Assembly (NCBI GenBank): GCA_038147295.1
Contig: JAYQTH010000002.1
Span: 74,243-138,242, forward strand
DNA length: 64,000 nucleotides
Reading direction: 5' to 3'
Source: Gammaproteobacteria bacterium
GTDB lineage: Bacteria; Pseudomonadota; Gammaproteobacteria; Magnimaribacterales; TMED112
Position numbers and translations under genes: made by a program. Below, one piece after another: positions 28,737 through 45,480 of this stretch (its first letter is position 1; the number at the start of each line of letters is the position of its first letter). The notes under the pieces were generated by a model. That model had not been told where the DNA came from and did no database searches. It saw only the letters and a program-made list of their open reading frames with translations.

Positions 28737-29975
28737 TTAAGAATTTGATCGACTGATATTCTTTGAAATATTGGCTCCGAGGCCAACTAAGAATAATGCT
28801 AATGGAATAATAGCCAATGGAGCTGTATATAAAACCAACCCAAGTGTTAATAGTGAATTAAATAAAAGGCCACCTGTGGCATCACCCAACCTGTTTGTAA
28901 AAGTATCAATGAATACCGTTGATTTATATTTTTCCTTTTGTGAAAGCGTTGTGTAAACTGCCTCTCTTGCTGGTTTATTAAGGCCATATTCAAATGGTCT
29001 CATGACACCTTGCAGGATCAGAAAGATCACCACTCCTGAATTGCTCAACAAATATCCAGAGAAATGGCCTGAAATTGCTAGAAATGCACCTACAAAAAGT
29101 ATGCCGTAAATAGTTAATACAAACCTTATGCCTAGGAACTTGGACCTCAAAATCAGAGATGTAAGGAAAATTTGAGTAAAAAGCGTAAGCAAAGGCACAA
29201 ATTGATCTGCCTGACCAAAGACTTTTGTTTTTTCAGCTGAAGTAGCTGCGTAAGCATTTACAATTTCAAGCTGGAAAAACCACATAGCTGTAGATAAGCA
29301 GGTCCATATGAAAGCATATAAGATAAAACTTCGTATCAATGGATTGTTTTTTATTTGAATAAACTGCTCAAATACTTCTTCCATTGAGCTATCCTTTCTA
29401 GAGCTTAAGTCGTTCTCATCCCTTTTTATTAATGATGAAAAATATACTGCCAATATTAAGGAGGTAACGGTAATGATTAATGAAAGAATTTGTTTGTCGT
29501 AAAGATAATTGCTAACTAGAAAGCCAGCACAGGAAGCGCCGAAAGAACCACAAGCACTAATTAAACCAAAATATTTTTTTCCCCCTTCGATATCAAAAGA
29601 GCTAACTGTTAGTGCCCAAAAAATTGCAACTATAAAAAAATTGAAGATGTTATACCAAACATAAAAAATAGCTTTAATTAAAAATAGATCCGGAAAAAAA
29701 ACATAGAACCATAAAAAAATTAGTAAATTAGAAATAAAAAATCCGTAAATGTAGATCGCAATTCTATTTTGCTTAATTTTTGAAACTATGAACGAATAGA
29801 GTGGATTAACTAAAAGCATCAATAGCACAACAATGAAAAGATAAAAAGTTAATTCCGAAGTTCCAATATCAGCTGCAATAGTATTTCTAAATGGCCTTAA
29901 AACGAATAATGAAAAAAGAACAAAAAAGAAAAACAAGCCAGAGAAGATTGTATTTTTAGAAAAGAATGATCCCAT
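28737..29975 (-). CDS. multi-pass transporter, MFS-like (N-terminus reminiscent of Npt1/TLC-type carriers)
   Basis: 412 aa with about 12 hydrophobic segments. Family assignment from ..VLRPFRNTIAADIG.. is weak. Confidence 0.45.
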   Translation of the reverse strand: MGSFFSKNTIFSGLFFFFVLFSLFVLRPFRNTIAADIGTSELTFYLFIVVLLMLLVNPLYSFIVSKIKQNRIAIYIYGFFISNLLIFLWFYVFFPDLFLIKAIFYVWYNIFNFFIVAIFWALTVSSFDIEGGKKYFGLISACGSFGASCAGFLVSNYLYDKQILSLIITVTSLILAVYFSSLIKRDENDLSSRKDSSMEEVFEQFIQIKNNPLIRSFILYAFIWTCLSTAMWFFQLEIVNAYAATSAEKTKVFGQADQFVPLLTLFTQIFLTSLILRSKFLGIRFVLTIYGILFVGAFLAISGHFSGYLLSNSGVVIFLILQGVMRPFEYGLNKPAREAVYTTLSQKEKYKSTVFIDTFTNRLGDATGGLLFNSLLTLGLVLYTAPLAIIPLALFLVGLGANISKNISRSNS

Positions 29976-30046
29976 AAATGCTCTATACCCAAACTATCAT
30001 ATAGCAAAAATGTATATATAATGAACTGCTTGAAATATTAGGTTCA

Positions 30047-30409
30047 ATGGTAGAAGAGTTAATCAACAATTATCCATCTTTAAGAGGTTTCATTTTTGGC
30101 TTTGTCCATGTTTTTATCACCGTCATTGGTTACTACACAGGCTGGAGCATTAACAGGCTATTGAAGGTTGCAAGCAGAGGCTATATTGCTGGCATTATCG
30201 GAGCAGCAATGGCACACATAGTAGCTGATTTGGTAGCTTCAATTATTGACCCATCAATAAGACCAATGACGCTTGGGATAATTTTAGGTGGCACACTACC
30301 ACTCTTAATGATTCCAATATTTGAGAAATATCTAGTAAAAAGCAAGGATCACATCATGGTCGGTGACCATGAAGATATAGAAAAAGATCTAAATAAAGAT
30401 CACAAATAG
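30047..30409 (+). CDS. hypothetical membrane protein
   Basis: 120 aa. Three hydrophobic segments and a His/Asp-containing tail (HIMVGDHEDIEKDLNKDHK). No family recognised. Confidence 0.45.
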   Translation: MVEELINNYPSLRGFIFGFVHVFITVIGYYTGWSINRLLKVASRGYIAGIIGAAMAHIVADLVASIIDPSIRPMTLGIILGGTLPLLMIPIFEKYLVKSKDHIMVGDHEDIEKDLNKDHK

Positions 30410-30411
30410 CC

Positions 30412-31668
30412 CTACTTGCAAACAGAGAGTTCAAGCTCAGATACGCCAATAGCTTCTGACATGGCAAAAAATACATCGGTGTTATCTAGGATACCTGAAA
30501 AATTTTCTGCTCCAGGACCATAGGCAAAAATTGGAACCATCGCGCCGGTATGACCGCCTCTGCCTACTGCAGTATTCCATGTGGCTTTAATATTTTTTGA
30601 TGCTTGATACCTTTTGTTGTCTTGCTCAATAAGTAGGCCTCCAGTCTCATGATCGGCTGTTACCAATACCAAAGTATCTTCTCTTGATTCTGCAAAATCT
30701 AAAGCAGCATTTACTACTTCATTGAATTCATCCATTTGCGCAATCATTCCAATGAAATCGTTATCGTGCGAACGCCAATCAATTTGGGAGCCCTCTGCCA
30801 TAATAAAAAAACCTCTGCAATTTTGATTTTGTATTGTTTGATTTGATAGCTGGTAAGCGTAATTAAACATCTGCAACAATGATGGATCGCTATCAACCAA
30901 ACCAAGTTCCTCTTGAGCAAATAGGCCAAAAACTTTGGAGTCCAAAGAGTTTGGTATATTTTCTAAATCGTCTGTCGACTTTAAAAAAACATAGTCCTTG
31001 ACCATTCTCTGTACAAAGTTATTTTCATCTTTTCTTAAACCGCCTAAAGTTTCTGGAATAAAGAAGCCTCTTCCACCTCCTAATACAATGTGATTTTTTG
31101 AATAGAAGATATCAGAGGCAATTGCATCGGTGTTGTATCGCGATGTATTGTGCGCTGCAAACGATGCTGGTGTGGCATGCGTTATCTCAGATGTAGCAAT
31201 GATCGAATTAATATAGCCTCTTTCAAATAATATCTCTGTAATATTGGGAACCGATGAGCCATCTGGTGCTGTGCCAATGTATCGGTTCTTAGTTTTAACT
31301 CCTGTGCTATATGCTGTAGCTGAAGCAGCTGAGTCAGTTACCAAACTATCAACCGCATGTGTTTTAACAAGGCCTGAAGCAGAGAATCTATCAAATGCAG
31401 TAATAAAATTAGGGCCGCCCTTGGTTACTCGATAAGCTGCTATATGGTTTGAGCCCATACCATCGCCTATGAGTAAAATTATATTTTTTGCTTTAGAAGA
31501 AACTGGAGCTATTTTTTTTTGATTTACTGTTTGATCAAAATCAAAGTCAATTAACTCCATATCCTTCTCAGGCACACTAATGAGTAATGGAGCATATTGA
31601 TTGATTAAAAAAAATGTCGCAAAGGCACTTAAAGCAATAGTTAATAGGTACTTAAAGAAGGTCTTCAT
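30412..31668 (-). CDS. phoA: alkaline phosphatase (PhoA family)
   Basis: 418 aa with a signal peptide. LIGDGMG, the active-site DSAASATAYSTG, ..ADHETGG.. and ..HTG.. metal ligands. Confidence 0.88.
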   Translation of the reverse strand: MKTFFKYLLTIALSAFATFFLINQYAPLLISVPEKDMELIDFDFDQTVNQKKIAPVSSKAKNIILLIGDGMGSNHIAAYRVTKGGPNFITAFDRFSASGLVKTHAVDSLVTDSAASATAYSTGVKTKNRYIGTAPDGSSVPNITEILFERGYINSIIATSEITHATPASFAAHNTSRYNTDAIASDIFYSKNHIVLGGGRGFFIPETLGGLRKDENNFVQRMVKDYVFLKSTDDLENIPNSLDSKVFGLFAQEELGLVDSDPSLLQMFNYAYQLSNQTIQNQNCRGFFIMAEGSQIDWRSHDNDFIGMIAQMDEFNEVVNAALDFAESREDTLVLVTADHETGGLLIEQDNKRYQASKNIKATWNTAVGRGGHTGAMVPIFAYGPGAENFSGILDNTDVFFAMSEAIGVSELELSVCK

Positions 31669-32477
31669 TTAGTGTCTAAGGCACTATCTTTGAGTTTTAA
31701 TTGTTGATTTTTTGGCAATGAGTAATCAAAATTTATCAATGCACCTTCCCATGCTCCATAAGTTGGATTGGCAAACATATACCAAGATGTGCCCCAATAA
31801 TCTTTGTATTTTTTTGCAATATTGACTCTATCTTTTGGAGGTAAAAGATTTTCCTCTATGTCGACAAAATCTCCAAAATTATCACCAAACATCATCAATA
31901 TTCGGTAATCTTTTGCTATAAGTTCTCTTCTGGAAGTTTTATTAGAGCCCCAACCGTTCTCTCCTTTTGATAATATTAGATCCAACTTTGATGAGAGCCT
32001 AAAACCTAATTTATCAAAATTATTTATTGTAGCTTGCTCAATTTCTAGCACTCTATTTGTAACAAAGAATACTTCAACCCCTTTTGATAAAGCATACTCC
32101 ATGAATTCTTTTGCTCCAGGCATGAATTCTGCTTGCTCTTCTTTAGCCCATTCAATCCAACCATCTGGGTATGAGCTGCCATTGCGTATTAGGCGAGCTT
32201 GATAAGCGATGTTATCCAAAACAGTCTGATCAACATCTAAAATAATTGCAGGTGGTTTATTCTGATATTTGCCTGTTTGCTCAAGAGCTGCAGTATGATT
32301 CTTATCCGCTATCAATGCATCAAGATTATCCTGTGCTGACTTATATATGGTCTGTGAATTTGCATATGCTTCTGCTGAACTTTGGGCAAATAAAGTTGCC
32401 ATCAAGGATTGATGTTCTTTGCTATCAGAGTAGCTGATAAGAGATAAAGTTAAGAATAAAAACAGTGCCCTTTTCAT
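31665..32477 (-). CDS. class C acid phosphatase / 5'-nucleotidase, lipoprotein e(P4) family (HAD IIIB)
   Basis: 270 aa with a signal peptide. DVDQTVLDN (DDDD motif part 1), ..FGDNFGDF.. and ..YWGTSWYMFANPTYGAWE... ATGA overlap with phoA. Confidence 0.8.
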   Translation of the reverse strand: MKRALFLFLTLSLISYSDSKEHQSLMATLFAQSSAEAYANSQTIYKSAQDNLDALIADKNHTAALEQTGKYQNKPPAIILDVDQTVLDNIAYQARLIRNGSSYPDGWIEWAKEEQAEFMPGAKEFMEYALSKGVEVFFVTNRVLEIEQATINNFDKLGFRLSSKLDLILSKGENGWGSNKTSRRELIAKDYRILMMFGDNFGDFVDIEENLLPPKDRVNIAKKYKDYWGTSWYMFANPTYGAWEGALINFDYSLPKNQQLKLKDSALDTK

Positions 32478-32525
32478 ACCGTTCTCTATTCTAATAGATG
32501 GGAAATAAAAGTGGTTAATATTGAT

Positions 32526-35114
32526 TTACTTTTTTGGAGATAATTCAAACTGGATATTTATCATACGTCCTCTCGGATCATGCACCCTAGTATCAAAACT
32601 AAAGTCAGGCGCATCGTAAAGCAAAGGCGGCTTCTCATCCAACAGATTAATGAATGCTAAGGAACCTATGAGGTCAAGATTTTCAAAATAATTACCAAAA
32701 CTCCTCTTTATAGAAAGATCAAACATTAAGGAAGAGTCTATCTTCGATCTGTAACCGATATTTAAGGCAGATTCTGGTATTGCCCTATTATTTTTGTAGC
32801 TGTCTATAAACCTTGCGATAAGCCCAAATTGATAGTCTTGATATTTCCAATCTAAAAAGCTGTTTATCCTCTTTTTGGGTAATGAGTGGATGTTTGAATC
32901 AAAATTATATCTTCCAACTCTATTTATAAGTTTTCCACTCTCACCCCCTTCTTGCAAAGATGGAGTTAAAAATTCAGAAATTTGGGTGGCTTTTACAGCA
33001 AAGTCCAATTGCCCATAATCACCGAGCTGAAAAACTTTTTCATACGAAAAATCAAGCCCAGAGACATCCGTTACTTCCTCATTGATGTAGGTTGTTGTAA
33101 CTCCAATTAAATCTCCAAGCTCATTTCTAGTGATGCTTGGGCCATATGGGTCATTAATGAGTTTAGCTTGAGCACTTTCAGCAATAATTCTGCCTTTGTA
33201 ATTTATATTCCAGAAATCAAGAGAAATAGCTTGGTTTTCGATCTTCCAGATAAAACCATAATTTTGATTTGTTGCCGTAGAAGGTTGTAAATTTGGATTA
33301 CCAATTTGCGCTTGTCTAACGAAGATACTGGCATCAAAATCTCGCACACTGCCAAGATTGATTTCATTGGAAAACATTTGCGCCATTGATGGCATAGAGA
33401 AAGAAGTGCCACGTGAAAACCTGATTACAAATGAGTCACTAAACAAGGTTGTAAGCGCAATTTTTGGGTTAAAGGATGAATCATTTTTAAAATTTTCGTA
33501 CCTACCTGAAACTTGTAAATCCACAAGATTTTGTAATTCTGTTTTAGTTTCAATAAACAGGGCGCTTTTATTTCTATTGGCATCGACATTTTGACCACCA
33601 CCAAGAAAAAATAAATCTGCTACTCTCAATAGCTTACCGCTAGCATCAAATTCCGTTCTCGCCAGGTCGTTGTAGGTAATTTTTAATGCTTCATTAGCCA
33701 CCTGCGCTCCAAATACAAAAGAAAAATTTGAGTTAAATTGGGAAGATCCAATTAAATCGAGCGAGGTTAAGTTGCCAATTTTCTCTGATTTTTCCGATCC
33801 TCTTACATAATTCACTAAACTTTCACTGTTGAGATTGGGTTCAAAAATATTCCACCTCTCATTGCCATTAACGCCTCCCCTTCCTTGCATCGCATCTTGG
33901 AAGCGTGAATCAATAACATCTGGTCGATTATGAAAGTTTTTATGTTCGCTGGTAGTCAGAGATAATTCAAAATCATAATCATCTACAGTAGTAAAAAAAG
34001 TATAGTTAAAGTGATATTGGCTAATATCTTTGGGAGAAAATGGTGAGGGATATTGCGATCCCAGCGGCCGCCCATACCATCTCACAGGAACATTAAAAGG
34101 AGATGAGCCTTCTCCAGGCTCAATAAGTCGTGATAAGTAAGGCAAAGCTGGGTACGATGGCGACTGTGGATTATCAATGACTCTAATATTTGATGTAATT
34201 AAAGAAATATTATGAATCTCATTTGAAGCACTTATATAAAATTTTGAATGATCTTCCTCATTGACGATATTAAATCTGTTGCCATAAAGGAATCTACAAA
34301 ACCCACTTAAAATTCCACCATTCTCTACACAATTTGGATCTGGCACAATCTGACCCTCTTCATATGATCCACTATAAAGACCATCTTCAATTTCATCTGC
34401 ACTCGTTACAATAAATGTATTGCCTAAACCACTTATAGCTAATTCGGCTATACCATCTATTTCAGAAGCAGATAAGGGCGACCTATTCAGCAAATTTGCG
34501 CCTAAAACCAAATCCCAATTTCCTAAAGTTTCACCAAACAAGAAACCAATATTTTGATCTTTTTGGTTGTAGTTTGTCGTTGTTTGATCCCCAAACCTTA
34601 GCTTATAACCATCGAATTTTTTGTAAGTAATAAAATTTACAACTCCGGCAACGGCATCTGAACCATACAGTGATGTTGCTCCTTCTTTAAGGATCTCAAT
34701 TCTTTCAAAAGCAATTTCAGGGATAATGTGAGCGTCTATGTATCCCTCACCATCGTTTGAAGGTGTGCCAGCAAAGGTATGTCTTTTTGAATTAAGCAAC
34801 AGGAGCGTTGAAGCTTGATCCAGCCCACGCAATGTAATTGAAGACATGCCTTGATCGATGCCCCCTAGGGTGTTTGCCTGAAAATTGGATCCAGATGCTG
34901 AACTTAAGTATTTGCTTATCTCTGCAATGTTTGTGATGTTTAGGTTTAAATAATCTTCTTTTTGAATTATTTCTGTAGGTGTTAAATTTGCTCCCTCATC
35001 GCCTATATAAGAACCAGTAATAACGACTTCTTCAATATCATCATCAGGGAAAATAAATCCTGAAAAGGAAAATAAGAGTTGTAACAATGTTGCCTGTATT
35101 AGTTTTTTAAGCAT
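32526..35114 (-). CDS. TonB-dependent receptor
   Basis: 862 aa. Signal peptide, DDDIEEVVITGSY TonB-box region, plug (..ITLRGL.., ..IEILKEGATSLYGSDAVAGVVNFIT..) and a long beta-barrel. Confidence 0.9.
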   Translation of the reverse strand: MLKKLIQATLLQLLFSFSGFIFPDDDIEEVVITGSYIGDEGANLTPTEIIQKEDYLNLNITNIAEISKYLSSASGSNFQANTLGGIDQGMSSITLRGLDQASTLLLLNSKRHTFAGTPSNDGEGYIDAHIIPEIAFERIEILKEGATSLYGSDAVAGVVNFITYKKFDGYKLRFGDQTTTNYNQKDQNIGFLFGETLGNWDLVLGANLLNRSPLSASEIDGIAELAISGLGNTFIVTSADEIEDGLYSGSYEEGQIVPDPNCVENGGILSGFCRFLYGNRFNIVNEEDHSKFYISASNEIHNISLITSNIRVIDNPQSPSYPALPYLSRLIEPGEGSSPFNVPVRWYGRPLGSQYPSPFSPKDISQYHFNYTFFTTVDDYDFELSLTTSEHKNFHNRPDVIDSRFQDAMQGRGGVNGNERWNIFEPNLNSESLVNYVRGSEKSEKIGNLTSLDLIGSSQFNSNFSFVFGAQVANEALKITYNDLARTEFDASGKLLRVADLFFLGGGQNVDANRNKSALFIETKTELQNLVDLQVSGRYENFKNDSSFNPKIALTTLFSDSFVIRFSRGTSFSMPSMAQMFSNEINLGSVRDFDASIFVRQAQIGNPNLQPSTATNQNYGFIWKIENQAISLDFWNINYKGRIIAESAQAKLINDPYGPSITRNELGDLIGVTTTYINEEVTDVSGLDFSYEKVFQLGDYGQLDFAVKATQISEFLTPSLQEGGESGKLINRVGRYNFDSNIHSLPKKRINSFLDWKYQDYQFGLIARFIDSYKNNRAIPESALNIGYRSKIDSSLMFDLSIKRSFGNYFENLDLIGSLAFINLLDEKPPLLYDAPDFSFDTRVHDPRGRMINIQFELSPKK

Positions 35115-35129
35115 CGAGAGAAATAATAC

Positions 35130-35147
35130 AAGCTTTTGGAAAAGCTT
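35130..35147. repeat. 8-bp inverted repeat with 2-nt centre (AAGCTTTT GG AAAAGCTT), function unknown
   Basis: Read directly from the sequence. Lies 16 nt upstream of the TBDR start codon at 35114. Confidence 0.5.
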
Positions 35148-35171
35148 CCTAATTTAAGAAGGAATAAACGA

Positions 35172-35191
35172 GAGAGGGCGATTGCCCTCTC
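35172..35191 (-). terminator. putative intrinsic terminator after the HE-rich TBDR
   Basis: The minus-strand RNA gives GAGAGGGC-AAUC-GCCCUCUC (8-bp GC-rich stem) followed by UCGUUUAUUCCUUCUU. It sits 16 nt after the stop at 35207. Confidence 0.6.
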
Positions 35192-35206
35192 ACATTATTA
35201 GAAGAA

Positions 35207-37465
35207 TTAAAACTTCAGGCTAAATTTAATACCTATGTTTTTGCCTGGAAGTGGAACTTCATCTTTGACAAAAGATGAATGGTTCCTTGCCACTTCATCA
35301 AGCAAGTTATTCCCAAACAAAGATACATTTAGCTTGCTGTTACTACCTGCAAACAGCTTTCCTAGGTCGTAACTCTTTGTAAGTCTTGCATCAAGCATCT
35401 GATACCCTTTAGTTGGAGTTTCATATTCATTAATATCTTTTTGAGTCTTAACATCTTTAAAAGATATGGCTCCAGAGAATCCATTATTGCTTTCATAAAT
35501 TGCAGTAACAATATTTCTTTTTGGAACTATACGAGGCACAAATCCTCCACCATTAGCAAACTCAGCTGTAACACTGTCCATAGCATAAGTAAAAATAAAG
35601 TTGCCATTTGGTAAAACAACATTTCTTCCTACTTCAAACTCATAGCCATAGAAGTCAGCATCTTTCTGCATATAGTTGGATAAGATCAATCCTCCATGAT
35701 CATGATGCTCTTCGCCTTCATGTTCTTCATCTTCATGCTCTTCGTGCTCTTCCTCAGATTCATCTTGAAGATAAATATAATTATCAACTGCATTACTAAA
35801 GTAGGAAAGATCAGCAAAAAATTCGCCTCTTGCCCAACTCAATGACAGGTCTGTATTATTTGATCTTTCTTCTTCAAGATTTACATCACCAACTTCATAT
35901 CTTGAAGTGGCTAGATGAGGTCCATTTATAAATAGTTCAACAGCTGAGGGTGCTCTAGCTACACTGGCAAAATTTAAGCTTAAGGATAAATTTTCATTTA
36001 AATCAAAATCTATGCCCCCTGCAAAACTTAAAGCACTAAAGTCAGGGTTAAAAAATTCTACCTCGCCTTCATGCTCCTCATGCTCATCTTCGTGCTCTTC
36101 TCCCTCATGCTCATCTTCGTGATGCTCTTCCTCCATTATTGAACCCTCTCTATCTATAAGGTCATAGCGAACACCTAAATCGACATGCCCAAACCCCATC
36201 TCTTTTCCAAGATAAAGTCCAAAAGTAGCCTCAGAACTTGTAACTGGCAACATATAGGCTTCTTCACCAAAAATTGATACTTCTTCTTCAGCTAAATTTA
36301 TAGAAATTTTTCGTGATAAATCGTTAGATGAAAAATCAAATATTGCGCCATATTCGAGTGCATCGTTTTTAAATAAGGTAGGACCTTCGGCATGATCATG
36401 TACATCCAGCATCTCGTCCTCATGTTCCTCGCCTTCATGATCTTCTTCAGCATGTTGTTCTGTTAAAGAGTAATCTGTATCTCTTAAAAAATAATCAATC
36501 TTGCTGATCAAAGATGAATTTAAATTTAAAGAACCTTCTAAATTAACTACATTTGATTCAGTGGTTGAAAATATTCTTTCATCCTCATGTTCATCATGTC
36601 CTTCTTCATGTTCCTCGCCTTCATGATCCTCTTCATGCTCGTCATGACCTTCATGACCCTCTCCATGAAATGGAATGCCATAGGATGACTCAAGATTATT
36701 AAATGACAATCCAACATAGCCCCAGTCGCCTGTTTTTGATAAACCAAATCTTGCTGAGGTAGAACCATAGTCTGAGTTTGCAAGAAAGCTTAGATCTTCT
36801 TCATGCTCCTCTTCGTGTTCCTCTTCTTCATGTTCTTCTTCCATATGCATAATTGCACCGTCAGGAACGTCATAGTTTGCAAAATCTGAATCTTTAAAAG
36901 CTGCAGAGACATTGAATCCTGCAAAATTGCCTGAGAAGTTCAAACCAATGCTAGAGCCATCATTAACAGATTGTGATTCAGAACTTAATGCGAGGCTTAA
37001 CTTATCAAAATCTTCTTGAGCAATTGTATTGTCGACAATATTTATAAGCCCACCTATAGCACCATTAGCATATAGTAGAGATGAGGGCCCTCTTACAATT
37101 TCTATTTGCTGAATGTTGTTTAAGTCAACCTCGTTAATATGGTCTCCTCCAAGTGCAGAAACATCCCTAACAACCATGCCATTATTGAGGATCTTTACTC
37201 TACTTCCAGATAAACCACGAATAATTGGCTGACCAACACCAAAACCATAATCAGATGAAGCAACGCCCAGTAAGTTGTCCAGTGCTTCACCTAAACTTCT
37301 TGTGCCATCATTTTCAATATCTTCACCTGAGACAATGTGCAAAGGGTCTTCAAGTTCATTTGACGTTTGATCTAAAATTGATGACTGAACTACTACCTCC
37401 TCGATATCTTCCTGTGAGAAAAATACAAAGGGTATTAAAACTAAACTTATAAAAAATCTTTTCAT
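35207..37465 (-). CDS. TonB-dependent receptor with five His/Glu-rich low-complexity insertions (putative metal receptor)
   Basis: 752 aa. Signal peptide, EDIEEVVV, plug (IIRGLSGSRV, IEIVRGPSSLLYANGAIGGLINI) and a terminal ..IKFSLKF. HE tracts at aa 207-224, 267-296, 338-359, 444-468 and 569-590. SD AAGGAGG upstream. Confidence 0.9.
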   Translation of the reverse strand: MKRFFISLVLIPFVFFSQEDIEEVVVQSSILDQTSNELEDPLHIVSGEDIENDGTRSLGEALDNLLGVASSDYGFGVGQPIIRGLSGSRVKILNNGMVVRDVSALGGDHINEVDLNNIQQIEIVRGPSSLLYANGAIGGLINIVDNTIAQEDFDKLSLALSSESQSVNDGSSIGLNFSGNFAGFNVSAAFKDSDFANYDVPDGAIMHMEEEHEEEEHEEEHEEDLSFLANSDYGSTSARFGLSKTGDWGYVGLSFNNLESSYGIPFHGEGHEGHDEHEEDHEGEEHEEGHDEHEDERIFSTTESNVVNLEGSLNLNSSLISKIDYFLRDTDYSLTEQHAEEDHEGEEHEDEMLDVHDHAEGPTLFKNDALEYGAIFDFSSNDLSRKISINLAEEEVSIFGEEAYMLPVTSSEATFGLYLGKEMGFGHVDLGVRYDLIDREGSIMEEEHHEDEHEGEEHEDEHEEHEGEVEFFNPDFSALSFAGGIDFDLNENLSLSLNFASVARAPSAVELFINGPHLATSRYEVGDVNLEEERSNNTDLSLSWARGEFFADLSYFSNAVDNYIYLQDESEEEHEEHEDEEHEGEEHHDHGGLILSNYMQKDADFYGYEFEVGRNVVLPNGNFIFTYAMDSVTAEFANGGGFVPRIVPKRNIVTAIYESNNGFSGAISFKDVKTQKDINEYETPTKGYQMLDARLTKSYDLGKLFAGSNSKLNVSLFGNNLLDEVARNHSSFVKDEVPLPGKNIGIKFSLKF

Positions 37466-37999: not shown

Positions 38000-39748
38000 T
38001 TATGGCTGTCTTATCTCATCAATCATTTTATAAACCTCGGATGGAGGTTTTGGAAAATATTTTGTCGCTGTAATAATTATCAATAAGTTGGCAAGCATAC
38101 CAATGACTCCAAAACCTTCAGGCGATATTCCTAAAAACCAATGGGACGCATTATTTAATTCTGGTGCGTAGAACTTAAAGTAAACAATATAACTTAATGT
38201 TATCGTTAGTCCTGCAAGCATACCCGCTATGACGCCTTCTTTATTTGCAGCTTTATAAAATATCCCCATAAGCAAGGCAGGGAAAATAGTAGAAGCGGCG
38301 AGACCAAATGCTAACGCAACCACTTGGGCAACAAACCCTGGTGGATTGATGCCAAAATATCCAGCAATAATAACTGCAGCTGTTGCAGCTATGCGAGCAT
38401 ATAGCAATTCTTGTTTTTCACTAATATTGGGTCGGAAAGTCTTTTTCATTAAGTCATGAGATATTGAAGAAGATATAACTAGCAGTAACCCAGCGGCGGT
38501 TGATAGGGCAGCAGCTAAAGCGCCAGCTGCAACTAGTGCAAATACCCATCCAGGGAGACTGGCAATCTCAGGATTTGCCAAAACCATTATGTCTCTATCG
38601 ATGTATAGCTCATTTTTATTTGATAAATTTTGCTCATTGGATACCACTCTTTCACCATGTGCTCCTAACTCATCTGAAAAATTTATTTTCACTCCCTCAA
38701 ATGCATTACCAACGGAATATTGTATTGCTCCATCATTGTTTTTATCTTGCCAAGCTACTAAACCGATTTGCTCCCAATTCTTAAACCATTCCGGTGCTTC
38801 AACATACTTAGTATCCTGCAGTGAGTCAGTCAAATTAACTCGAGCAAACGCTCCAACCGCTGGAGCTGTTGTAAAAAGCAAAGCTATAAAAACTAAAGCA
38901 TACCCTACCGACTTACGAGCATCTCTTACTTTAGGCACTGTAAAAAAACGGACAATAACATGTGGTAAACCAGCTGTACCAAACATAAGAGCTGCTGTGA
39001 TACAAAAAACATCTAGGGTGCTTTTTGTGTTTTCGGTGTAAGGCACAAACCCAAGCTCTGTAGTAATTCGATCTAGTTTATCGAGCAAATATTCAGAACC
39101 GCCAACAACAGTGTCTCCAAAACCTAATTGGGGTACTGGATTACCAGTAACTAATATCGAAATAAATATGGCTGGAACCAGGTAGGCAAAAATCAAAACA
39201 CAATACTGTGCAACTTGGGTATAGGTTATACCTTTCATCCCACCCATAACAGCGTAAAAGAAAACGATGACCATCCCAATGATTACGCCTAAGTTAATAT
39301 CAACCTCTAGAAATCTAGAAAAGACTATACCGACGCCTCTCATTTGGCCTGCAATGTAAGTAAATGAAATAAAGATGAGGCAAAGAACAGCTACAATCCG
39401 AGCGACATCAGAATAGTACCTAGTCCCAATGAATTCAGGAACGGTATACTTACCAAATTTTCTTAGGTAAGGCGCAAGCAATAAAGCAAGCAGCACGTAC
39501 CCACCTGTCCACCCCATAAGATAAACTGAACCATCTCGTCCCGAAAAAGCAATGATGCCAGCAATGGAAATAAAAGAAGCTGCCGACATCCAATCTGCAG
39601 CAGTAGCCATACCATTTGCAACGGGATGCACTCCTTTGCCTGCGACATAGAAATCACCGGTATCTTTAGCCTTGCTCCAGAAAGCGATACCGATATACAA
39701 AGCAAAGGTAATACCAACAAATAGATAAGTTAATAGTTGAGTGCTCAT
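38000..39748 (-). CDS. sodium:solute symporter (ActP-like, DUF4212-associated subfamily)
   Basis: 582 aa, SSF-family multi-TM protein. Its start overlaps the stop of the small DUF4212 subunit gene by 4 nt. Confidence 0.8.
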   Translation of the reverse strand: MSTQLLTYLFVGITFALYIGIAFWSKAKDTGDFYVAGKGVHPVANGMATAADWMSAASFISIAGIIAFSGRDGSVYLMGWTGGYVLLALLLAPYLRKFGKYTVPEFIGTRYYSDVARIVAVLCLIFISFTYIAGQMRGVGIVFSRFLEVDINLGVIIGMVIVFFYAVMGGMKGITYTQVAQYCVLIFAYLVPAIFISILVTGNPVPQLGFGDTVVGGSEYLLDKLDRITTELGFVPYTENTKSTLDVFCITAALMFGTAGLPHVIVRFFTVPKVRDARKSVGYALVFIALLFTTAPAVGAFARVNLTDSLQDTKYVEAPEWFKNWEQIGLVAWQDKNNDGAIQYSVGNAFEGVKINFSDELGAHGERVVSNEQNLSNKNELYIDRDIMVLANPEIASLPGWVFALVAAGALAAALSTAAGLLLVISSSISHDLMKKTFRPNISEKQELLYARIAATAAVIIAGYFGINPPGFVAQVVALAFGLAASTIFPALLMGIFYKAANKEGVIAGMLAGLTITLSYIVYFKFYAPELNNASHWFLGISPEGFGVIGMLANLLIIITATKYFPKPPSEVYKMIDEIRQP

Positions 39749-39987
39749 TGTTTATTTTTCTTGTATTTATCGTCGAGCTTATTAAGCAAATGCACGTATA
39801 TAAAAATTAAAATCACAAAAAAGAAAATGCTGCCCTGTTGAGCAAACCAGAAGCCTAACTTAAAACCGCCAAACTTAAACTGATCTAGAAAATCAGATAA
39901 TAAAATTCCAAAACCAAATGAAACAATGAACCATATAGTAAGCAGAATAGAAATGATCTTTAAATTTTCCTGCCAGTATTTGTTCAC
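39745..39987 (-). CDS. sodium:solute symporter small subunit (DUF4212)
   Basis: 80 aa with a GTG start and two TM helices. ..GFKLGFWFAQQGSIFFFVILIFIY.. is typical of DUF4212 partners of ActP-like permeases. Confidence 0.7.
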   Translation of the reverse strand: MNKYWQENLKIISILLTIWFIVSFGFGILLSDFLDQFKFGGFKLGFWFAQQGSIFFFVILIFIYVHLLNKLDDKYKKNKQ

Positions 39988-40040: not shown

Positions 40041-40832
40041 TTACTGCAGCCGCTTTTTAAGCTCTAAATATCTATCTCGATATTTATCATCCTCATTGGA
40101 TGCAGTGGCAACAATCCATAAGTATTCAACATATAAAGCCAACTTTTTAAATGAATCTAGTACATCTAAATCCATTGCGTTATGAGTGCCAGTGTAGGAA
40201 TTTAAAAAATACTTCTCTTCATCTTGTGACAGATCCAATGCATTAAGGAGAGTTGCAATATCATAATAAGGATGATTTAACCCAGCATAGTCCCAGTCTA
40301 TGAAATAAATGTTATCTGTATAAATTATGTTTGACAGGTTTAAGTCGTTATGACAAAAAACTAGCTTGCTCTTGTCAGCAGTAACTTTTTTTATAAAGCT
40401 TTTTGCATTCTTGCTTACTGAGTCTAGAGCTTGCTCACCAATGGTAAGGAAATATTTCTCTATTTTTTCCTCAAAAAGCTCATACTCATAATTATCAATT
40501 TTTGTGCTATGCAGATCTTGTAACTTTAATGCAATGTCATAAAGAATTTTTTTATTTGGGTGAGGTGCCATTGATGTGCCGTCAATTTTTTCATAAATAA
40601 CTAAATTAGCCTCTTTATCATGATCCAAAAATTTCGGTGTTAGATTATATGGTGCCAACTTGCGATGGATGCTCTGTTCCAGATCTATATTGTTCTCAAA
40701 AAGATTGTGTTTTTTAAATTTTAAGATCGCATCCATGTTGTGGAACCTGCAGGTATAGACTTCTGAAAACTTTGTTTTTTGAAGAATGCCAATGATAGTA
40801 AGATCTCTCTTAAATTTTCCTAAGTTGATCAT
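40041..40832 (-). CDS. APH/choline-kinase-fold phosphotransferase, thiamine kinase (ThiK)-like
   Basis: 263 aa. Brenner motif CHNDLNLSNII and IDWDYAG. Last gene of the TPP-riboswitch operon. Confidence 0.6.
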   Translation of the reverse strand: MINLGKFKRDLTIIGILQKTKFSEVYTCRFHNMDAILKFKKHNLFENNIDLEQSIHRKLAPYNLTPKFLDHDKEANLVIYEKIDGTSMAPHPNKKILYDIALKLQDLHSTKIDNYEYELFEEKIEKYFLTIGEQALDSVSKNAKSFIKKVTADKSKLVFCHNDLNLSNIIYTDNIYFIDWDYAGLNHPYYDIATLLNALDLSQDEEKYFLNSYTGTHNAMDLDVLDSFKKLALYVEYLWIVATASNEDDKYRDRYLELKKRLQ

Positions 40833-40836
40833 ATGA

Positions 40837-41418
40837 TTAGGCGTTTGACCTCATAGCTTGTACCCAGGCCCTGTATCCAAAAACAATAATTACTAGATAT
40901 ATGACAAATAAGACTGCTGTTGGATAAAGTTCACGACTTAAAAAAAGAAAAACAGATACAAAATCAATGACAAACCAATATATCCAATTCTCTAGAACTT
41001 TTTTTGCTACCATAAATGTTGCAAGAATGGCGCCCCAAGTTGTAAATGAATCTATGTATGGGGCAACAGCATTTGAATTGTGTGAAAGCAAATATCCAGA
41101 AATTACAACTATGCATAGAAGAGATCCAATTGCATAAAAATGTTGTTTCTTATTCCATCTTCTTATGCTGAGTTTATCTTGAGCTGATCTTTTGTCCCAC
41201 TGCATCCAACCGTAGATACCCATTCCAACATAAAAGATTTGTAGCGCCGATTCCATTAACAGCCCCGCATACAGCATGACAAATAAATACATTAATGAGC
41301 TTATTATCCACGCGATCCAACACCTAATATCTTGCTTCAATGCCAACAATAGATAAATAATTGCAAGAATAGCAGCCAAGATTTCAAACCAAACGGAATT
41401 TAAGAAGTTAGAAATCAT
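40837..41418 (-). CDS. PnuC-family transporter (PnuT-like, predicted thiamine/thiamine-precursor uptake)
   Basis: 193 aa with 6-7 TM helices and PnuC-like W-rich motifs (..GIYGWMQW.., ..NWIYWFVID..). Overlaps the upstream TBDR by 11 nt. Confidence 0.75.
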   Translation of the reverse strand: MISNFLNSVWFEILAAILAIIYLLLALKQDIRCWIAWIISSLMYLFVMLYAGLLMESALQIFYVGMGIYGWMQWDKRSAQDKLSIRRWNKKQHFYAIGSLLCIVVISGYLLSHNSNAVAPYIDSFTTWGAILATFMVAKKVLENWIYWFVIDFVSVFLFLSRELYPTAVLFVIYLVIIVFGYRAWVQAMRSNA

Positions 41419-43495
41419 ACTTTAATGAAATTCCAAAATGTCTTGGATCTCCATGCCTACGATACAATGTATCAATAAAATCAGGAGCTTCATTACCAAA
41501 GTAAAAGCCTCGTGTTGAATAATATTCATCAAAAAGGTTTTGCACCCAAATATCCAAGGTCCAATCATTAATTATGTGCGTTAATCTAGCATTGGTTAAG
41601 ATATAAGAATCTGATTGATTGTCATGAGAATCTGAGTAATAAAAACTACTTTTGCCAACAAAGTTAACGGACAAAGAGGTATTTAAATTAAGGTTGTAGT
41701 TAATGCCTGATGACAAAGAAAATTTTGGAGCATGTGCTTGTGCCCTACCTGCAACATCAGGACGTGATACCCAATTTTTAATTTCAGTTTCTAAATAACC
41801 TAAATTAACAAAGGCGGAGATATTATCACTCAAATTTATGTCAGCAGTTATCTCTGCTCCATAATTTAAACCTTCAGCAGCATTTTTAGTTAAATAGACA
41901 AAGGTATTGGGGTCATTAGGATCCACCTGCGTTGAGATTAATACTTGCTGATCTTCTCTTAAAGAACGAAATAAGCTCAAACTTAGTCCAATATAGTTGT
42001 TGATTTCTGCATTAAGGCCAAGCTCAACATTTTTTAAGTGTTCTGGCTCGTACTCTAAGTCAGAAGGATCAACTTGCCCGAGCAAACCAAGACCAACGTT
42101 AAAACCACCCTGCTTGTAACCTTTTGCATAACTCAAGTAAATATTATCCCTGTCATTCAGAACATAATTTATTGAAGCTTTGCCCCCAAACATATAGTCA
42201 GACAAATCAAACCGTTCGTTATTTGTATCGGCATATTTTGCAGACCATTCCTCAGCTCTTAAGCCTAGCGAAAAAATTAAGTTGTCAAACCACTCATAAT
42301 CAAAGTTAGAGAAAAATGAAACATTATCAGACTGATAATCACTTTTAGCCAAGCTTAAACTTTCGTAAGGTCCATATGGATCTGTGGGGTCGCCATAAAT
42401 CCCATCATCTTTTCTATCATTGGTTTCTTCAAGAGTTAGATATGATGCGCCTAAAACCCATCTAAAAGGCTGCCCTATATCTTTTGAAACAAGCCTAACT
42501 TCTTGGTTGAATGATTGTCTTTCTCGCAATGTTTCAGAAAAGTAATCATACGTATATGGGGCATGCGAGTCTTGGTTGCCCCAATCTGCATCGTAGCTAA
42601 AAATAACAAACGTATCAGTTGCACTAGTAAAGCTCTGCAACTCAAATTGATCAAATTCTTTAAAGTATTTAAATCCTGCAGTATCTGTTTTTTGAGAGTC
42701 CATCCCTGGCCTATCGGATAGAGTATTTAGAGAATTATCAATCGTCCATATGTCTGCTGGGTCATCCATATCAACTCGACTTAAAAGAAGTTTGCTATTG
42801 CTGTATTCTGATAAATCAAAATCTATTTTTAATCTCAAAGTCTTTTCGTCCTTTCTTGAGGTATTAGATTTATTTAAGTAAATATTTTTTCTAAACCCAT
42901 CGGATTTATCCTGACGAATGGCTAAACGAAACTTAATTTTTTTGTCTGCTGTTAAAGGTCCTCCAAAAGCTGTTCCTAAACTTGATGTATTGTAATTACC
43001 AATGCTCAGTTCAGATTTCCCTTTAAACTCATCGGTAGGCTCATTGGTTGTGATATAAATCAGTCCTGCCAGTGCATTTGCGCCGATTCTAGATGCTTGT
43101 GGTCCTCTAATTACTTCAATTTGATTAACATCAAACAATGTAGCAATACCACCTTGGCCAGAGTAATCAACGTCATCGATTAAGAAACCTATCGATGAAT
43201 TTGGAGTTCCTAAATACCCAGATCGTTCGCCAATTCCCCTGATTTGAAAATACCGAGCTCTTGAATCGCTCGCTGCAAAGTTTAGGTTTGGGACCAGATA
43301 AGAGATATTTTCAAAATGCTTTATGGGTTGTGAATCTATTTCAGATTGACCCAGAATAAAAGTGCTAGCGTCCTCTTCTATCAGTTTGGTTTCACGCCAA
43401 TCTGCCTTAACTACTACTTCTTCAACATCATCATCTGCTAAGCAAATTGATGAAAGTAGAACGATGATAAAAAGATATTTCTTAGTATGTCTCAT
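41408..43495 (-). CDS. TonB-dependent receptor (TPP-riboswitch regulated)
   Basis: 695 aa. Signal peptide, DDDVEEVVV, plug (..IEVIRGPQASRIGANALAGLIYITT..) and a terminal ..FGISLKYDF. Confidence 0.9.
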   Translation of the reverse strand: MRHTKKYLFIIVLLSSICLADDDVEEVVVKADWRETKLIEEDASTFILGQSEIDSQPIKHFENISYLVPNLNFAASDSRARYFQIRGIGERSGYLGTPNSSIGFLIDDVDYSGQGGIATLFDVNQIEVIRGPQASRIGANALAGLIYITTNEPTDEFKGKSELSIGNYNTSSLGTAFGGPLTADKKIKFRLAIRQDKSDGFRKNIYLNKSNTSRKDEKTLRLKIDFDLSEYSNSKLLLSRVDMDDPADIWTIDNSLNTLSDRPGMDSQKTDTAGFKYFKEFDQFELQSFTSATDTFVIFSYDADWGNQDSHAPYTYDYFSETLRERQSFNQEVRLVSKDIGQPFRWVLGASYLTLEETNDRKDDGIYGDPTDPYGPYESLSLAKSDYQSDNVSFFSNFDYEWFDNLIFSLGLRAEEWSAKYADTNNERFDLSDYMFGGKASINYVLNDRDNIYLSYAKGYKQGGFNVGLGLLGQVDPSDLEYEPEHLKNVELGLNAEINNYIGLSLSLFRSLREDQQVLISTQVDPNDPNTFVYLTKNAAEGLNYGAEITADINLSDNISAFVNLGYLETEIKNWVSRPDVAGRAQAHAPKFSLSSGINYNLNLNTSLSVNFVGKSSFYYSDSHDNQSDSYILTNARLTHIINDWTLDIWVQNLFDEYYSTRGFYFGNEAPDFIDTLYRRHGDPRHFGISLKYDF

Positions 43496-43575
43496 GCAAT
43501 TCCTCCGCCATTATTGTATGGATCAGGTTCAAAGGGTTCCTTAAAAGATCTCAGGTAAAACCTCCCCTTTGCACT
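43496..43575 (-). promoter_or_regulatory. TPP (THI-box) riboswitch
   Basis: The minus strand reads UGCAAAGGGGAGGUUUUACCUGAGAUCUUUUAAGGAACCCUUUGAACCUGAUCCAUACAAUAAUGGCGGAGGAAUUGC-AUG. It has the conserved GGGG, CUGAGA, ACCC, ACCUGAUC..AUAAUGG.CG.AGGA elements. P1 (UGCAA/UUGCA) reaches the start codon, and GGAGGA doubles as the SD. Confidence 0.85.
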
Positions 43576-43617
43576 TAAGTTAAGAATAATTTTTTTTGGA
43601 CTATAAATCTAGGTTGA

Positions 43618-43694
<77 letters not shown>

Positions 43695-44646: not shown

Positions 44647-45480
44647 TTAGTTTTTAACTTTTCCTCGACGAAATAGCCAAAAGCCAAGACCAAATGAACA
44701 AATGGTAAATATAGCTTCAGCAATTAAAGCTTCATTTTGACTAGTGCCATAAAAGTTAATTGCCATTAGATTGAATACAAAAGCAGATGCATAAATAGTG
44801 CCTGAAGCAAAAAACCATGTGGGATTTAAAGTAATAATGCCTAGCAAATAAAAAATTGCGTTTGCCATAAAAAATGCCGTCATATCTCTGATTAGAGTAT
44901 TCCTGCCTAAATCTGATATTTCACTAAAATTAAAACCAAAACTTTCTGCAGCTGTTGCAGGATCAAAAATCCAACTTGTCGTAATTGAGAGTATAAGAAT
45001 CAGAGGCAGGCATGCTAGGAATCTAATTACACTCTTAACAGTAAAGTCTTTTTGTATCAAATTAAAGTAACTTAGCCCACCGATATAGCCAGCAGCAATA
45101 TGCAAAATCTGGCCAAATAATGTTCTATTACCAGCAATAGGATGAGTCTTAAAAAGCAGCTCAACCATAAGAATAAGTGCTACACCAACAGCAACGCCTC
45201 CAGCCAAGCCATAGAGATGTGCATTTTTAACTTTAAATACTTTTGCAATGAGAGCTGCAACTGAAAAAGCAATAGCAAAACCAATTGCAAAAACAATTAT
45301 TAAAGGCAGTCCTAATGAAAAAAGGTCAAATAGTATGACTTTAAGCCATATAAATAAATTGGGCTGCATTTCAGACATGCCTAGCCAGATTAAGTTGGAG
45401 ATGGAAGTAATTGGTGTAACTAATGCAGCAGTAATAGCAGCTGCAGCAATCAAAAAGATTGGATATTTCAATATCTGCAT
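44647..45480 (-). CDS. hypothetical multi-pass membrane protein
   Basis: 277 aa with about 8 hydrophobic segments. No family recognised. Confidence 0.5.
   Translation of the reverse strand: MQILKYPIFLIAAAAITAALVTPITSISNLIWLGMSEMQPNLFIWLKVILFDLFSLGLPLIIVFAIGFAIAFSVAALIAKVFKVKNAHLYGLAGGVAVGVALILMVELLFKTHPIAGNRTLFGQILHIAAGYIGGLSYFNLIQKDFTVKSVIRFLACLPLILILSITTSWIFDPATAAESFGFNFSEISDLGRNTLIRDMTAFFMANAIFYLLGIITLNPTWFFASGTIYASAFVFNLMAINFYGTSQNEALIAEAIFTICSFGLGFWLFRRGKVKN

Follow-up and report, generated by a model that had tools for sequence, protein, structure and literature searches.

The window analysed here, a stretch of 64,000 nucleotides, comes from a SAR86 bacterium and contains a compact three-gene operon encoding a TonB-dependent receptor (695 aa), a channel of the PnuC/PnuT family (193 aa), and a kinase with the APH/choline-kinase fold (263 aa). 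In the order of transcription, the features of the operon and its leader are as follows.

43583..43611, minus strand: probable operon promoter (TAGATT at 43611-43606, a 17-nt spacer, TATTCT at 43588-43583)
43483..43578, minus strand: TPP riboswitch aptamer (RF00059, by Rfam match), with a P1-to-P1 core at 43573-43495
43502..43506, minus strand: Shine-Dalgarno (SD) sequence GGAGG, 6 nt before the AUG, located by the Rfam alignment
43493..43495, minus strand: receptor AUG, whose A (43495) ends the 3' strand of P1
41408..43495, minus strand: TonB-dependent outer-membrane receptor (omr1/OMthi type), with Plug and beta-barrel domains
40837..41418, minus strand: PnuT-type inner-membrane facilitator (PF04973), with a seven-helix core
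40041..40832, minus strand: presumed thiamine-trapping kinase

The three genes are tightly coupled, as an earlier note on this DNA had stated: measured on the open reading frame (ORF) coordinates, the receptor and channel genes overlap by 11 nt, and a gap of 4 nt separates the channel gene from the kinase gene. Neither of the downstream genes has an evident SD of its own and, given this spacing, both are probably translated by coupling.

Very likely, this is a TPP-repressed operon for the uptake and trapping of thiamine in SAR86. The uptake-and-trapping reading was already that of the earlier note, and it is supported by the Rfam match and by a strongly conserved gene neighbourhood. What has been observed directly is the aptamer, how SD and AUG are placed in it, which genes the operon contains, and that the module is conserved; thiamine as the substrate of all three proteins is what we infer. 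The operon is a real and neatly minimised case of a type of system already known from comparative genomic work, from the genetics of Bacteroides, and from the biochemistry of PnuT.

A riboswitch that contains the ribosome-binding site

The covariance model bears out the TPP riboswitch that had been noticed by motif. RF00059 matched the leader over its full length (model positions 1-105; 43578..43483, minus strand) with 58.8 bits (E 5.8e-9), which exceeds the gathering score of 54.3 bits by only 4.5 bits. The core motifs quoted previously (GGGG, CUGAGA, ACCCUUUGAACCUGAUC, and AUAAUGGCGGAGGA) are present in the sequence, and the alignment to RF00059 places CUGAGA in the pyrimidine-sensor arm and ACCUGAUC...GGCG.AGG in the pyrophosphate-sensor arm. 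Helix P1 is formed by UGCAA (43573-43569) and UUGCA (43499-43495). Both the conserved core motifs and this closing helix are invariant among SAR86-type orthologues. Among the aligned SAR86-type leaders, the P3 stem shows a compensatory change from GGU...ACC to GGC...GCC, and no covariation is visible in P1, the leader being too conserved for it. Judged by folding thermodynamics alone, the aptamer fold does not stand out (z = 0.32).

The same call was made repeatedly in other genomes. Six orthologous leaders (L002, L003, L008, L012, L013, and L014) also pass the RF00059 gathering score, orthologous operons of other lineages score 60-87 bits, and of the 34 receptor-led operons tested, 32 have a match upstream of the receptor gene that reaches at least the gathering score. 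RF00059 was not called in L009 and L011, the remaining two; by eye, the L009 leader holds a full aptamer. The recurrence of the same leader and gene order in distant genomes is more than chance.

The ribosome-binding site is part of this structure. P1 does extend into the start codon, as the earlier note had claimed, since the final A of UUGCA is the A of the receptor AUG, and the conserved GGAGG (43506-43502) lies 6 nt before it; the Rfam alignment assigns its GAGG to the 3' strand of helix P4. All nine SAR86-type leaders aligned share this embedding of SD and AUG in the aptamer, and GGCGGAGGAAUUGCAUG is identical in them (9/9). The distance from P1 to AUG is likewise 0 in the six orthologous leaders named above. 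In five further leaders from Gammaproteobacteria, an in-frame ATG follows 2-6 nt past the approximate end of P1. SAR86 is not alone in having its SD and AUG within the aptamer or abutting it. In Campylobacterota versions of the operon, the first in-frame ATG comes 29-89 nt after P1. The riboswitch of E. coli thiM relies on an expression platform of its own, which includes an anti-SD segment. TPP-dependent occlusion of the ribosome-binding site is common to the thiM type and to our proposal for SAR86, whereas in the SAR86 leader the SD and AUG are themselves parts of aptamer helices P4 and P1.

TPP-repressed translation is the most likely mechanism. The transcript would start a few bases before P1, from the conserved promoter-like element, and its 5' leader is a complete TPP aptamer without a separate expression platform. 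In this leader the ribosome-binding site GGAGG is the 3' strand of P4, which belongs to the pyrophosphate-sensing arm, and the A of the AUG closes P1. At high cellular TPP, bound ligand may lock P1 and the P4/P5 arm, keeping the 30S subunit off the SD and AUG and stopping translation of the receptor; synthesis of the two coupled downstream proteins would probably fall with it. When TPP is low, all three proteins would be made. The receptor would then pump thiamine across the outer membrane, and the vitamin would diffuse through PnuT across the inner membrane and be phosphorylated on its hydroxyethyl group by the kinase. As PnuT accepts no thiamine phosphates, phosphorylation would keep the vitamin inside and maintain the inward gradient. 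Counted against this explanation is the predicted ligand-free ensemble: the AUG and the final two bases of the SD are for the most part paired in it already.

The promoter-like element ends about 10 nt upstream of P1. TAGATTT is invariant in 8/8 SAR86-type leaders aligned, with or without an upstream tRNA, and in all eight a -10-like hexamer (TATTCT, TATCCT, TATTAT, TAAAAT, TATGAT, or TAAGAT) follows at fixed spacing. A generic sigma-70 scan did not report the element; its conservation makes it the probable promoter of the operon. A tRNA-Ile(GAU) gene on the same strand ends at 43618, 39 nt upstream, and nothing resembling an intrinsic terminator was reported in the stretch from there to the aptamer. 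This arrangement would suit control of the same components mainly at the level of transcription or mRNA decay, through Rho-dependent termination or read-through from the tRNA, with occlusion of the ribosome-binding site secondary. It also counts for this alternative that riboswitches acting on translation often bring about Rho termination or mRNA decay secondarily. However, no terminator was found between the aptamer, which runs directly into the coding sequence, and that sequence; every SAR86-type leader has its SD and AUG within aptamer helices; and the promoter-like element is kept even where the tRNA is absent. We therefore consider predominantly transcriptional or decay-based control unlikely.

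Receptor, channel, and kinase

The receptor has Plug (1.3e-10) and TonB_dep_Rec_b-barrel (5.1e-29) domains and, by eye, a signal-peptide-like N terminus and a TonB-box-like EEVVVKA. It scored below every NCBIfam equivalog cut-off for siderophore, haem, and B12 receptors, and its gene is preceded by a THI element, as in the THI-regulated Omr1/OMthi subgroup. It is 61-73% identical to its counterparts in other SAR86 subclades and 31-50% identical to homologues in other Proteobacteria and in Campylobacterota, which head the same operon where the contig extends far enough. Rodionov et al. (2002; cited in PMC3020362, PMC5749112, and PMC5613172) used THI-element regulons to predict Omr1 and PnuT as candidate thiamine transporters; the same classes of receptor and channel are found here under a THI element. 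In the same organism group, omr1 with a TPP riboswitch nearby has already been reported from SAR86 genomes, in an account covering omr1 and the riboswitch only, with pnuT, the kinase, and the embedded ribosome-binding site unmentioned (PMC10881298).

The channel matches NMN_transporter (PF04973) with 160.7 bits (4.6e-47) and shows a distant relationship to 4QTN, a solved structure of PnuC. It carries the TM6 motif WxxW(x)3D/N as W145-I-Y-W148-F-V-I-D152, in agreement with the WxxWxxxD motif defined for the Pnu family (PMC5749112), and W71/W74 and W185 are candidate gate tryptophans. Because its score of 75.5 bits on the NCBIfam equivalog for PnuC (nicotinamide riboside) likewise exceeds the cut-off of 42.45, sequence alone does not settle its specificity. 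Its context is that of the PnuT subtype, namely THI-element control and an adjoining putative thiamine-phosphorylating enzyme. PnuT of Shewanella woodyi, which resembles our protein in family and motif, acts as a facilitator for thiamine and does not bind TMP or TPP (PMC5749112), which fits trapping by a kinase. The model of facilitated diffusion plus a kinase trap would apply directly to the SAR86 operon.

The kinase matches the Pfam families APH (PF01636; 58.4 bits, 1.2e-15) and Choline_kinase (PF01633; 54.3 bits, 1.7e-14). Its catalytic HxDxxxxN loop reads C160-H-N-D-L-N...N168, and throughout the family neither this motif nor D179 varies (H161, D163, N168, and D179). The AlphaFold model has a mean pLDDT of 91.4, and the best solved match is choline kinase LicA (4r7b; TM 0.77, 25% identity). 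With an invariant Brenner motif and metal-binding Asp, a confident model, and a choline-kinase fold, the enzyme looks active. Choline and the thiazolium hydroxyethyl of thiamine both present a hydroxyethyl group on a cationic centre. The best NCBIfam match is GntI.

Likeness to E. coli thiamine kinase ThiK (ycfN), raised in the earlier note, holds for fold and presumed role and fails for orthology. The two enzymes share a superfamily and the presumed reaction from thiamine to TMP, and their catalytic loops and IDWEY/IDWDY segments align. Orthology to E. coli ThiK was considered and rejected: the kinase reaches 55.4 bits against a cut-off of 299.45 for the ThiK equivalog TIGR02721, BLASTP gives 30% identity over only 61 residues, and a profile of operon-linked kinases ranks E. 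coli ThiK (66 bits) below all the rest of the 13 kinases searched that lie outside thiamine-importer operons. Two relatives of the kinase, L021 (61.6 bits) and L026 (77.2 bits), also fall below the TIGR02721 cut-off. Unlike the SAR86 gene, E. coli thiK is neither under riboswitch control nor next to a transporter. The substrate is thus assigned from gene context only, and the product would be thiamine monophosphate. No match to the TPK, ThiN, or Tnr3 families was found for the three operon proteins (Pfam, NCBIfam) or the other window ORFs scanned.

Conservation of the module and its likely substrate

We sorted 83 loci with relatives of the kinase by gene content. In 58 of them the kinase gene lies directly behind a thiamine importer: 36 have receptor-PnuT-kinase, six PnuT-kinase, and 16 (receptor-)ThiB-ThiP-ThiQ-kinase. 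The ThiB of a kinase-linked ThiBPQ operon passes the TIGR01276 equivalog (377 versus 317 bits). In 26 non-SAR86 loci, a gene of about 85 aa with YkoF/Thiamine_BP matches stands between receptor and importer. Four loci (L026, L058, L059, and L061) have a second RF00059 match and a thiC homologue after the kinase, and the thiC homologue of L026 passes the ThiC equivalog cut-off. Relatives of the kinase also occur in unrelated contexts, including a Tn3-like element.

No thi genes were found among the 64 window ORFs scanned, and thiL is absent from its usual nusB-adjacent place in the window. SAR86 has been described as lacking thiamine biosynthesis (PMC3358033); its B1 auxotrophy rests on that literature and is not readable from 64 kb. 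If SAR86 were to lack both thiL and a thiamine pyrophosphokinase, a plain thiamine-to-TMP kinase would yield no cofactor. Given the reported lack of pathway genes and the missing thiL beside nusB, the kinase might be the sole thiamine-activating enzyme, in which case the second phosphate of TPP would have to come from the kinase itself or from an unknown enzyme. It is conceivable, if rather doubtful, that in Gammaproteobacteria and Campylobacterota, riboswitch-controlled thiamine importers are usually partnered by an uncharacterised family of thiamine kinases, neither orthologous to ThiK nor pyrophosphokinases, which perhaps provides the only thiamine-activating enzyme in SAR86.

The module might instead import and phosphorylate a thiamine-related compound (hydroxyethylthiazole or cHET, HMP, or a degradation product), with the kinase standing in for ThiM. 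TPP riboswitches also control the precursor transporters thiV, cytX, and thiXYZ (PMC10881298, PMC3020362), YkoF-type proteins are described as binding thiamine and HMP alike (PMC3020362), and thiC adjoins the module in some genomes. Precursors would, however, be useless without thiE, thiD, and thiM, none of which is in the window, and SAR86 is reported to lack the pathway (PMC3358033). Furthermore, the same kinase family is paired with a ThiB that passes a thiamine-binding equivalog, and the characterised PnuT transports thiamine (PMC5749112), all of which makes a precursor substrate improbable.

It is also important to consider a kinase whose substrate is unrelated to the vitamin, such as a choline/ethanolamine or antibiotic kinase merely sitting in the operon. 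The structural match to LicA, the about equal Choline_kinase and APH scores, and the relatives in unrelated contexts would agree with this. Against it, the 58 importer-linked loci involve two non-homologous thiamine importers in Gammaproteobacteria and Campylobacterota, most of these kinase-importer operons are under a TPP riboswitch, and in the window the kinase gene starts 4 nt after the pnuT stop, so that we regard an unrelated substrate as very unlikely. Salvage of nicotinamide riboside through a PnuC, the riboswitch call being a borderline false positive, is hardly credible: the Pnu protein passes the PnuC equivalog and is named an NMN transporter by IMG, the RF00059 score is near threshold, and an e(P4)-like phosphatase, the PnuC partner in Haemophilus, is nearby, but the universally conserved TPP-aptamer motifs are all present, orthologous operons of other lineages have RF00059 scores of 60-87 bits, no NadR- or Nrk-type kinase is present, and ThiBPQ replaces PnuT in 16 loci.

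For the preferred reading, thiamine uptake and trapping, the closest parallel is in Bacteroides, where growth at low thiamine depends on an OMthi-pnuT-tnr3 system under TPP-riboswitch control; most gut Bacteroidetes have it as a single operon (PMC5613172). OMthi (BT2390) and pnuT-tnr3 (BT2396-97) of Bacteroides thetaiotaomicron follow the same logic and order of riboswitch, receptor, PnuT, and cytoplasmic thiamine-phosphorylating enzyme. The third gene differs: in Bacteroides it encodes a thiamine pyrophosphokinase that makes TPP in one step, whereas in SAR86 it encodes the unrelated APH/choline-kinase-fold enzyme.

The NAD salvage route of Haemophilus influenzae, e(P4)/PnuC/NadR as cited in PMC5749112, has a matching architecture of periplasmic dephosphorylation, Pnu facilitator, and cytoplasmic kinase trap, and serves a different vitamin. 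The earlier note had suggested that nearby e(P4)-like and PhoA phosphatases could supply the dephosphorylation step here. Both are present, but they have no riboswitch and nothing ties them functionally to thiamine; the e(P4)-like gene lies in a separate operon. The neighbourhood of phosphatases and thiamine operon is nevertheless conserved across deep SAR86 subclades.

Comparative gene context

The main support for the predicted function of the operon comes from comparative gene context. We sorted by tblastn the genes surrounding relatives of the kinase at 83 loci, 80 of them from a scan of one genome per species and 3 from look-ups of the exact protein.

Gene content of the 83 loci encoding kinase relatives
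Receptor-PnuT-kinase: 36 loci; SAR86, Halieaceae, Woeseiaceae, Steroidobacteraceae, Pseudomaricurvus, Sulfurovum, and other Campylobacterota
PnuT-kinase: 6 loci; mainly Arcobacter/Campylobacterales-type, one being a truncated gammaproteobacterial contig
(Receptor-)ThiB-ThiP-ThiQ-kinase: 16 loci; Sulfurovum and relatives
Kinase then thiC only: 2 loci; Campylobacteraceae
None of these gene contents: 23 loci; mixed, with several contigs ending at or just upstream of the kinase

In the first three classes, which make up 58 of the 83 loci, the kinase follows one or the other of two unrelated thiamine importers. ThiB of the ABC-type operons scored above the thiamine-binding equivalog cut-off (377 versus 317 bits). 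A match to the TPP riboswitch family RF00059 at or above its gathering score immediately precedes the receptor in 32 of the 34 operons tested. The exceptions were L009 and L011, which gave no match at the gathering score; the L009 aptamer is complete by eye. Downstream of the kinase, four loci (L026, L058, L059, and L061) have another RF00059 match and a thiC homologue; L026 also carries thiO.

A conserved gene of ~85 aa with YkoF/Thiamine_BP matches lies between the receptor and PnuT or ThiB in 26 non-SAR86 loci (L017, L020-L022, L026, L027, L038-L040, L044, L046, L047, L049, L053, L057-L061, L066-L068, L072, L073, L075, and L080), adding a fourth member to the operon there. Its PF07615 scores were 26.9 bits in L026 and 22.5 bits in L068, with a cut-off of 21. 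This gene is absent from every SAR86-type operon. The SAR86 operon is a stripped-down version, with overlapping genes and neither the YkoF-like gene nor an expression platform. The neighborhood as a whole is syntenic with a 1.1-Mb SAR86 contig (L084). Other riboswitches were also seen in Campylobacterota loci, namely, a c-di-GMP-I riboswitch ~1.7 kb upstream of the thiamine operon (L057, 1118-1192, 52.3 bits) and an FMN riboswitch (L034, 11769-11910, 119 bits).

The three proteins and known thiamine systems

The kinase (263 aa) is a member of the APH/choline-kinase superfamily. Its catalytic loop (H161/D163/N168) and D179 are invariant among 22 relatives, its AlphaFold model is confident (mean pLDDT of 91.4), and, among solved structures, pneumococcal choline kinase LicA is nearest (TM score of 0.77, 25% identity). 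The protein is 99% identical to a gene in the SAR86 cluster MAG JADHNL010000010 (L001), and databases name the family either thiamine kinase-like enzyme (COG0510) or hypothetical protein. An earlier note had described the kinase as ThiK-like, which holds for the superfamily but not for orthology. Judged from its sequence, the kinase is not an orthologue of ThiK: it scored 55.4 bits against TIGR02721 (ThiK), for which the cut-off is 299.45; BLASTP aligned only 61 residues with E. coli ThiK; and a profile of operon-linked kinases gave E. coli ThiK 66 bits, below kinases from unrelated contexts, one of which, on a Tn3-like element, scored 116 bits. A neighbor-joining tree placed E. coli ThiK among the operon-linked gammaproteobacterial kinases; because this tree lacks resolution in its deep branches and the profile test points the other way, we did not use it to judge orthology. 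With a consistent genomic context and no characterized member, the family is a well-defined target for enzymology. We also considered a 277-aa hypothetical protein (45480..44647) as a hidden kinase and ruled it out, since its several hydrophobic segments show it to be a membrane protein.

Encoded upstream of the kinase is the channel:

40837-41418, minus strand: PnuT-type channel, 193 aa (PF04973, 4.6e-47)

It carries the TM6 motif W145-x-x-W148-x-x-x-D152, the Asp of which is needed for thiamine binding in Shewanella woodyi PnuT (PMC5749112). The channel also scores above the NCBIfam equivalog cut-off for the nicotinamide riboside transporter PnuC, and in IMG it is called an NMN transporter, so its sequence alone does not fix its substrate. 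The NMN/nicotinamide riboside label probably reflects systematic misannotation of a gene that is abundant in marine environments. At an E value of ≤1e-10, the channel matches at least 2769 metagenomic clusters, the closest being 89-99% identical. The receptor (695 aa) has Plug and TonB-dependent barrel domains and falls far under all NCBIfam equivalog cut-offs for receptors of siderophores, haem, or B12; receptors of this lineage tend to carry siderophore-receptor labels (PMC11582366).

Receptors (omr1) and pnuT genes under THI-element control are a prediction of comparative genomics, as cited in PMC3020362, PMC5749112, and PMC5613172. OMthi-pnuT-tnr3 of Bacteroides is backed by genetics (PMC5613172), PnuT is a facilitator that excludes TMP and TPP (PMC5749112), and omr1 with a nearby TPP riboswitch has already been noted in SAR86 genomes (PMC10881298). 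The kinase fold described here differs from that of the Bacteroides pyrophosphokinase. The locus contributes the complete three-gene route in SAR86, the distinct kinase, which is not orthologous to ThiK either, and the riboswitch without an expression platform. The locus leaves unchanged the existing understanding of how such systems work, and it is likely the entry point of a limiting micronutrient for a large share of ocean bacteria. The full route is useful for annotation, in which the channel is now labeled an NMN/nicotinamide riboside transporter and the kinase hypothetical or thiamine-kinase-like; correct labels would sharpen the budgeting of B1 producers and consumers in metagenomes.

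The riboswitch leader and its probable control of translation

All of the TPP aptamer motifs quoted in the earlier note are found in the sequence, and the leader matches RF00059 above the gathering score (43578..43483, minus strand; 58.8 versus 54.3 bits; E value of 5.8e-9; model positions 1-105). Only three matches reached the gathering score in an Rfam scan of the whole window, the other two being tRNAs.

Features of the leader and the tRNA genes
43618-43694, minus strand: tRNA-Ile(GAU), ending 39 nt upstream of the Rfam riboswitch match
43583-43611, minus strand: promoter-like element (TAGATTT, 17-nt spacer, -10-like hexamer), from the leader comparison A3
43573-43569, minus strand: 5' strand of helix P1, UGCAA (Rfam alignment)
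43506-43502, minus strand: Shine-Dalgarno (SD) sequence GGAGG, 6 nt ahead of the AUG; its GAGG forms the P4 3' strand
43499-43495, minus strand: 3' strand of P1, UUGCA (Rfam alignment)
27448-27523, minus strand: tRNA-Ala(UGC)

The Rfam alignment bears out that P1 reaches into the start codon and that the SD lies in the conserved GGAGG: the A of the AUG of the 695-aa ORF (43495..41408) is the final A of the P1 3' strand. The distance between AUG and P1 is zero in all six SAR86-type leaders tested, GGCGGAGGAAUUGCAUG is identical across nine aligned SAR86-type leaders, and the receptors encoded in these lineages share only 61-73% identity with that of the window. Five other gammaproteobacterial leaders (L017, L027, L049, L068, and L075) have an in-frame ATG 2-6 nt past the approximate end of P1. 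In Campylobacterota leaders, 29-89 nt separate P1 from the first in-frame ATG, and this stretch contains pyrimidine-rich CUUCCC-like segments.

A generic promoter/terminator scan found no terminator-like hairpin between aptamer and coding sequence and called no terminator after the kinase. The minimum free energy of the leader was no better than that of shuffled sequence (z = 0.32), and part of the SD and AUG is already paired in the predicted ligand-free ensemble; secondary-structure energetics of this kind do not by themselves decide the mechanism and have little bearing on a tertiary fold that depends on ligand. We consider direct, ligand-dependent occlusion the most likely mechanism; the TPP-bound aptamer would itself cover the SD and AUG. 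Translational coupling would then carry the effect on to pnuT and the kinase gene, neither of which has an evident SD; the tight spacing described earlier, an 11-nt overlap between genes 1 and 2 and a 4-nt gap between genes 2 and 3, agrees with the ORF table. We hold the overall reading, a TPP-repressed operon for thiamine uptake and trapping, with considerable confidence. At ~87 nt and with no expression platform, the leader RNA offers a convenient minimal model for translational TPP control. In two SAR86-related gammaproteobacterial MAGs (L009, 800-970, and L011), the leader holds a complete SAR86-like aptamer and, ~80 nt further on, repeats the P4/P5 arm (CCUGUUCCAGUAAAUGGCGGAGGUGAACCAUG); it is this second copy that bears the real SD and start codon. 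The arrangement may reflect either a degenerate tandem aptamer or an intermediate toward the platform-free SAR86 design.

As for transcription, the generic scan called no promoter in the leader, and the promoter-like element is visible only by leader comparison. Across the eight leaders compared, TAGATTT does not vary, and the element keeps a constant distance from P1, upstream of it. Read-through from the tRNA-Ile gene 39 nt upstream is a possible source of the transcript. Since the element is retained even where that gene is missing, the operon is probably transcribed from a promoter of its own, the start site being just ahead of P1. The -35-like part agrees with the sigma-70 consensus at only 3 of 6 positions, yet is invariant; the element could be a lineage-specific promoter or a site for another factor. 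The adjacency of tRNA-Ile and riboswitch is present in L001, L002, and L003 and absent in L008, L012, and L084. In L084, a 301-aa ORF with no Pfam match (6158-7063) lies between phhA and the riboswitch, an interval that in the window holds the tRNA-Ile gene only. The usual home of tRNA-Ile(GAU) and tRNA-Ala(UGC) is the 16S-23S spacer; in the window, each stands alone, with 16 kb between them.

Thiamine activation and flanking genes

A ThiK-type reaction yields TMP, and conversion of TMP to TPP requires ThiL. In E. coli, nusB is followed by thiL and pgpA, whereas in the window the order is as follows:

108-4856, plus strand: nrdR-ribD-ribBA-ribH-nusB, then a 179-aa acidic hypothetical protein without a family match, then proC

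Neither E. coli ThiL nor PgpA had a tblastn match in the window or any fetched locus, and a scan of 64 window ORFs against Pfam and/or NCBIfam revealed no thi gene. Three SAR86 genomes were without any thiamine pathway genes in the work of Dupont et al. (PMC3358033). Given these absences, the kinase may be the sole thiamine-activating enzyme of SAR86, a reading we consider improbable.

Downstream of the operon are two further gene groups:

38000-39987, minus strand: DUF4212 small subunit and VC_2705-family sodium/solute symporter, 53 nt downstream of the kinase
28737-37465, minus strand: co-directional cluster of two receptors, acid phosphatase, alkaline phosphatase, and a weak MFS-like protein
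Within this cluster, minus strand: two TonB-dependent receptors, 752 and 862 aa
32477..31665, minus strand: e(P4)-like class B acid phosphatase
31668..30412, minus strand: alkaline phosphatase (PhoA)

The suggestion in the earlier note that the phosphatases could supply a dephosphorylation step is a hypothesis. A homologous receptor and acid phosphatase, with PhoA or the MFS-like protein, lie 0.8-3 kb downstream of the kinase in L002, L003, L005, L007, and L008. As these loci represent deeply diverged SAR86 subclades, the neighborhood is conserved. L084 has the cluster too. The proximity could also reflect general synteny, and Rfam found no riboswitch before the cluster in the window or the fetched loci.

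We rejected the DUF4212 and symporter genes as operon genes 4 and 5; they adjoin the kinase only in its closest relatives (L001 and L084), and in other SAR86 subclades the pair is not behind the kinase. The 53-nt gap between the kinase and DUF4212 contains a TATAAT sequence.
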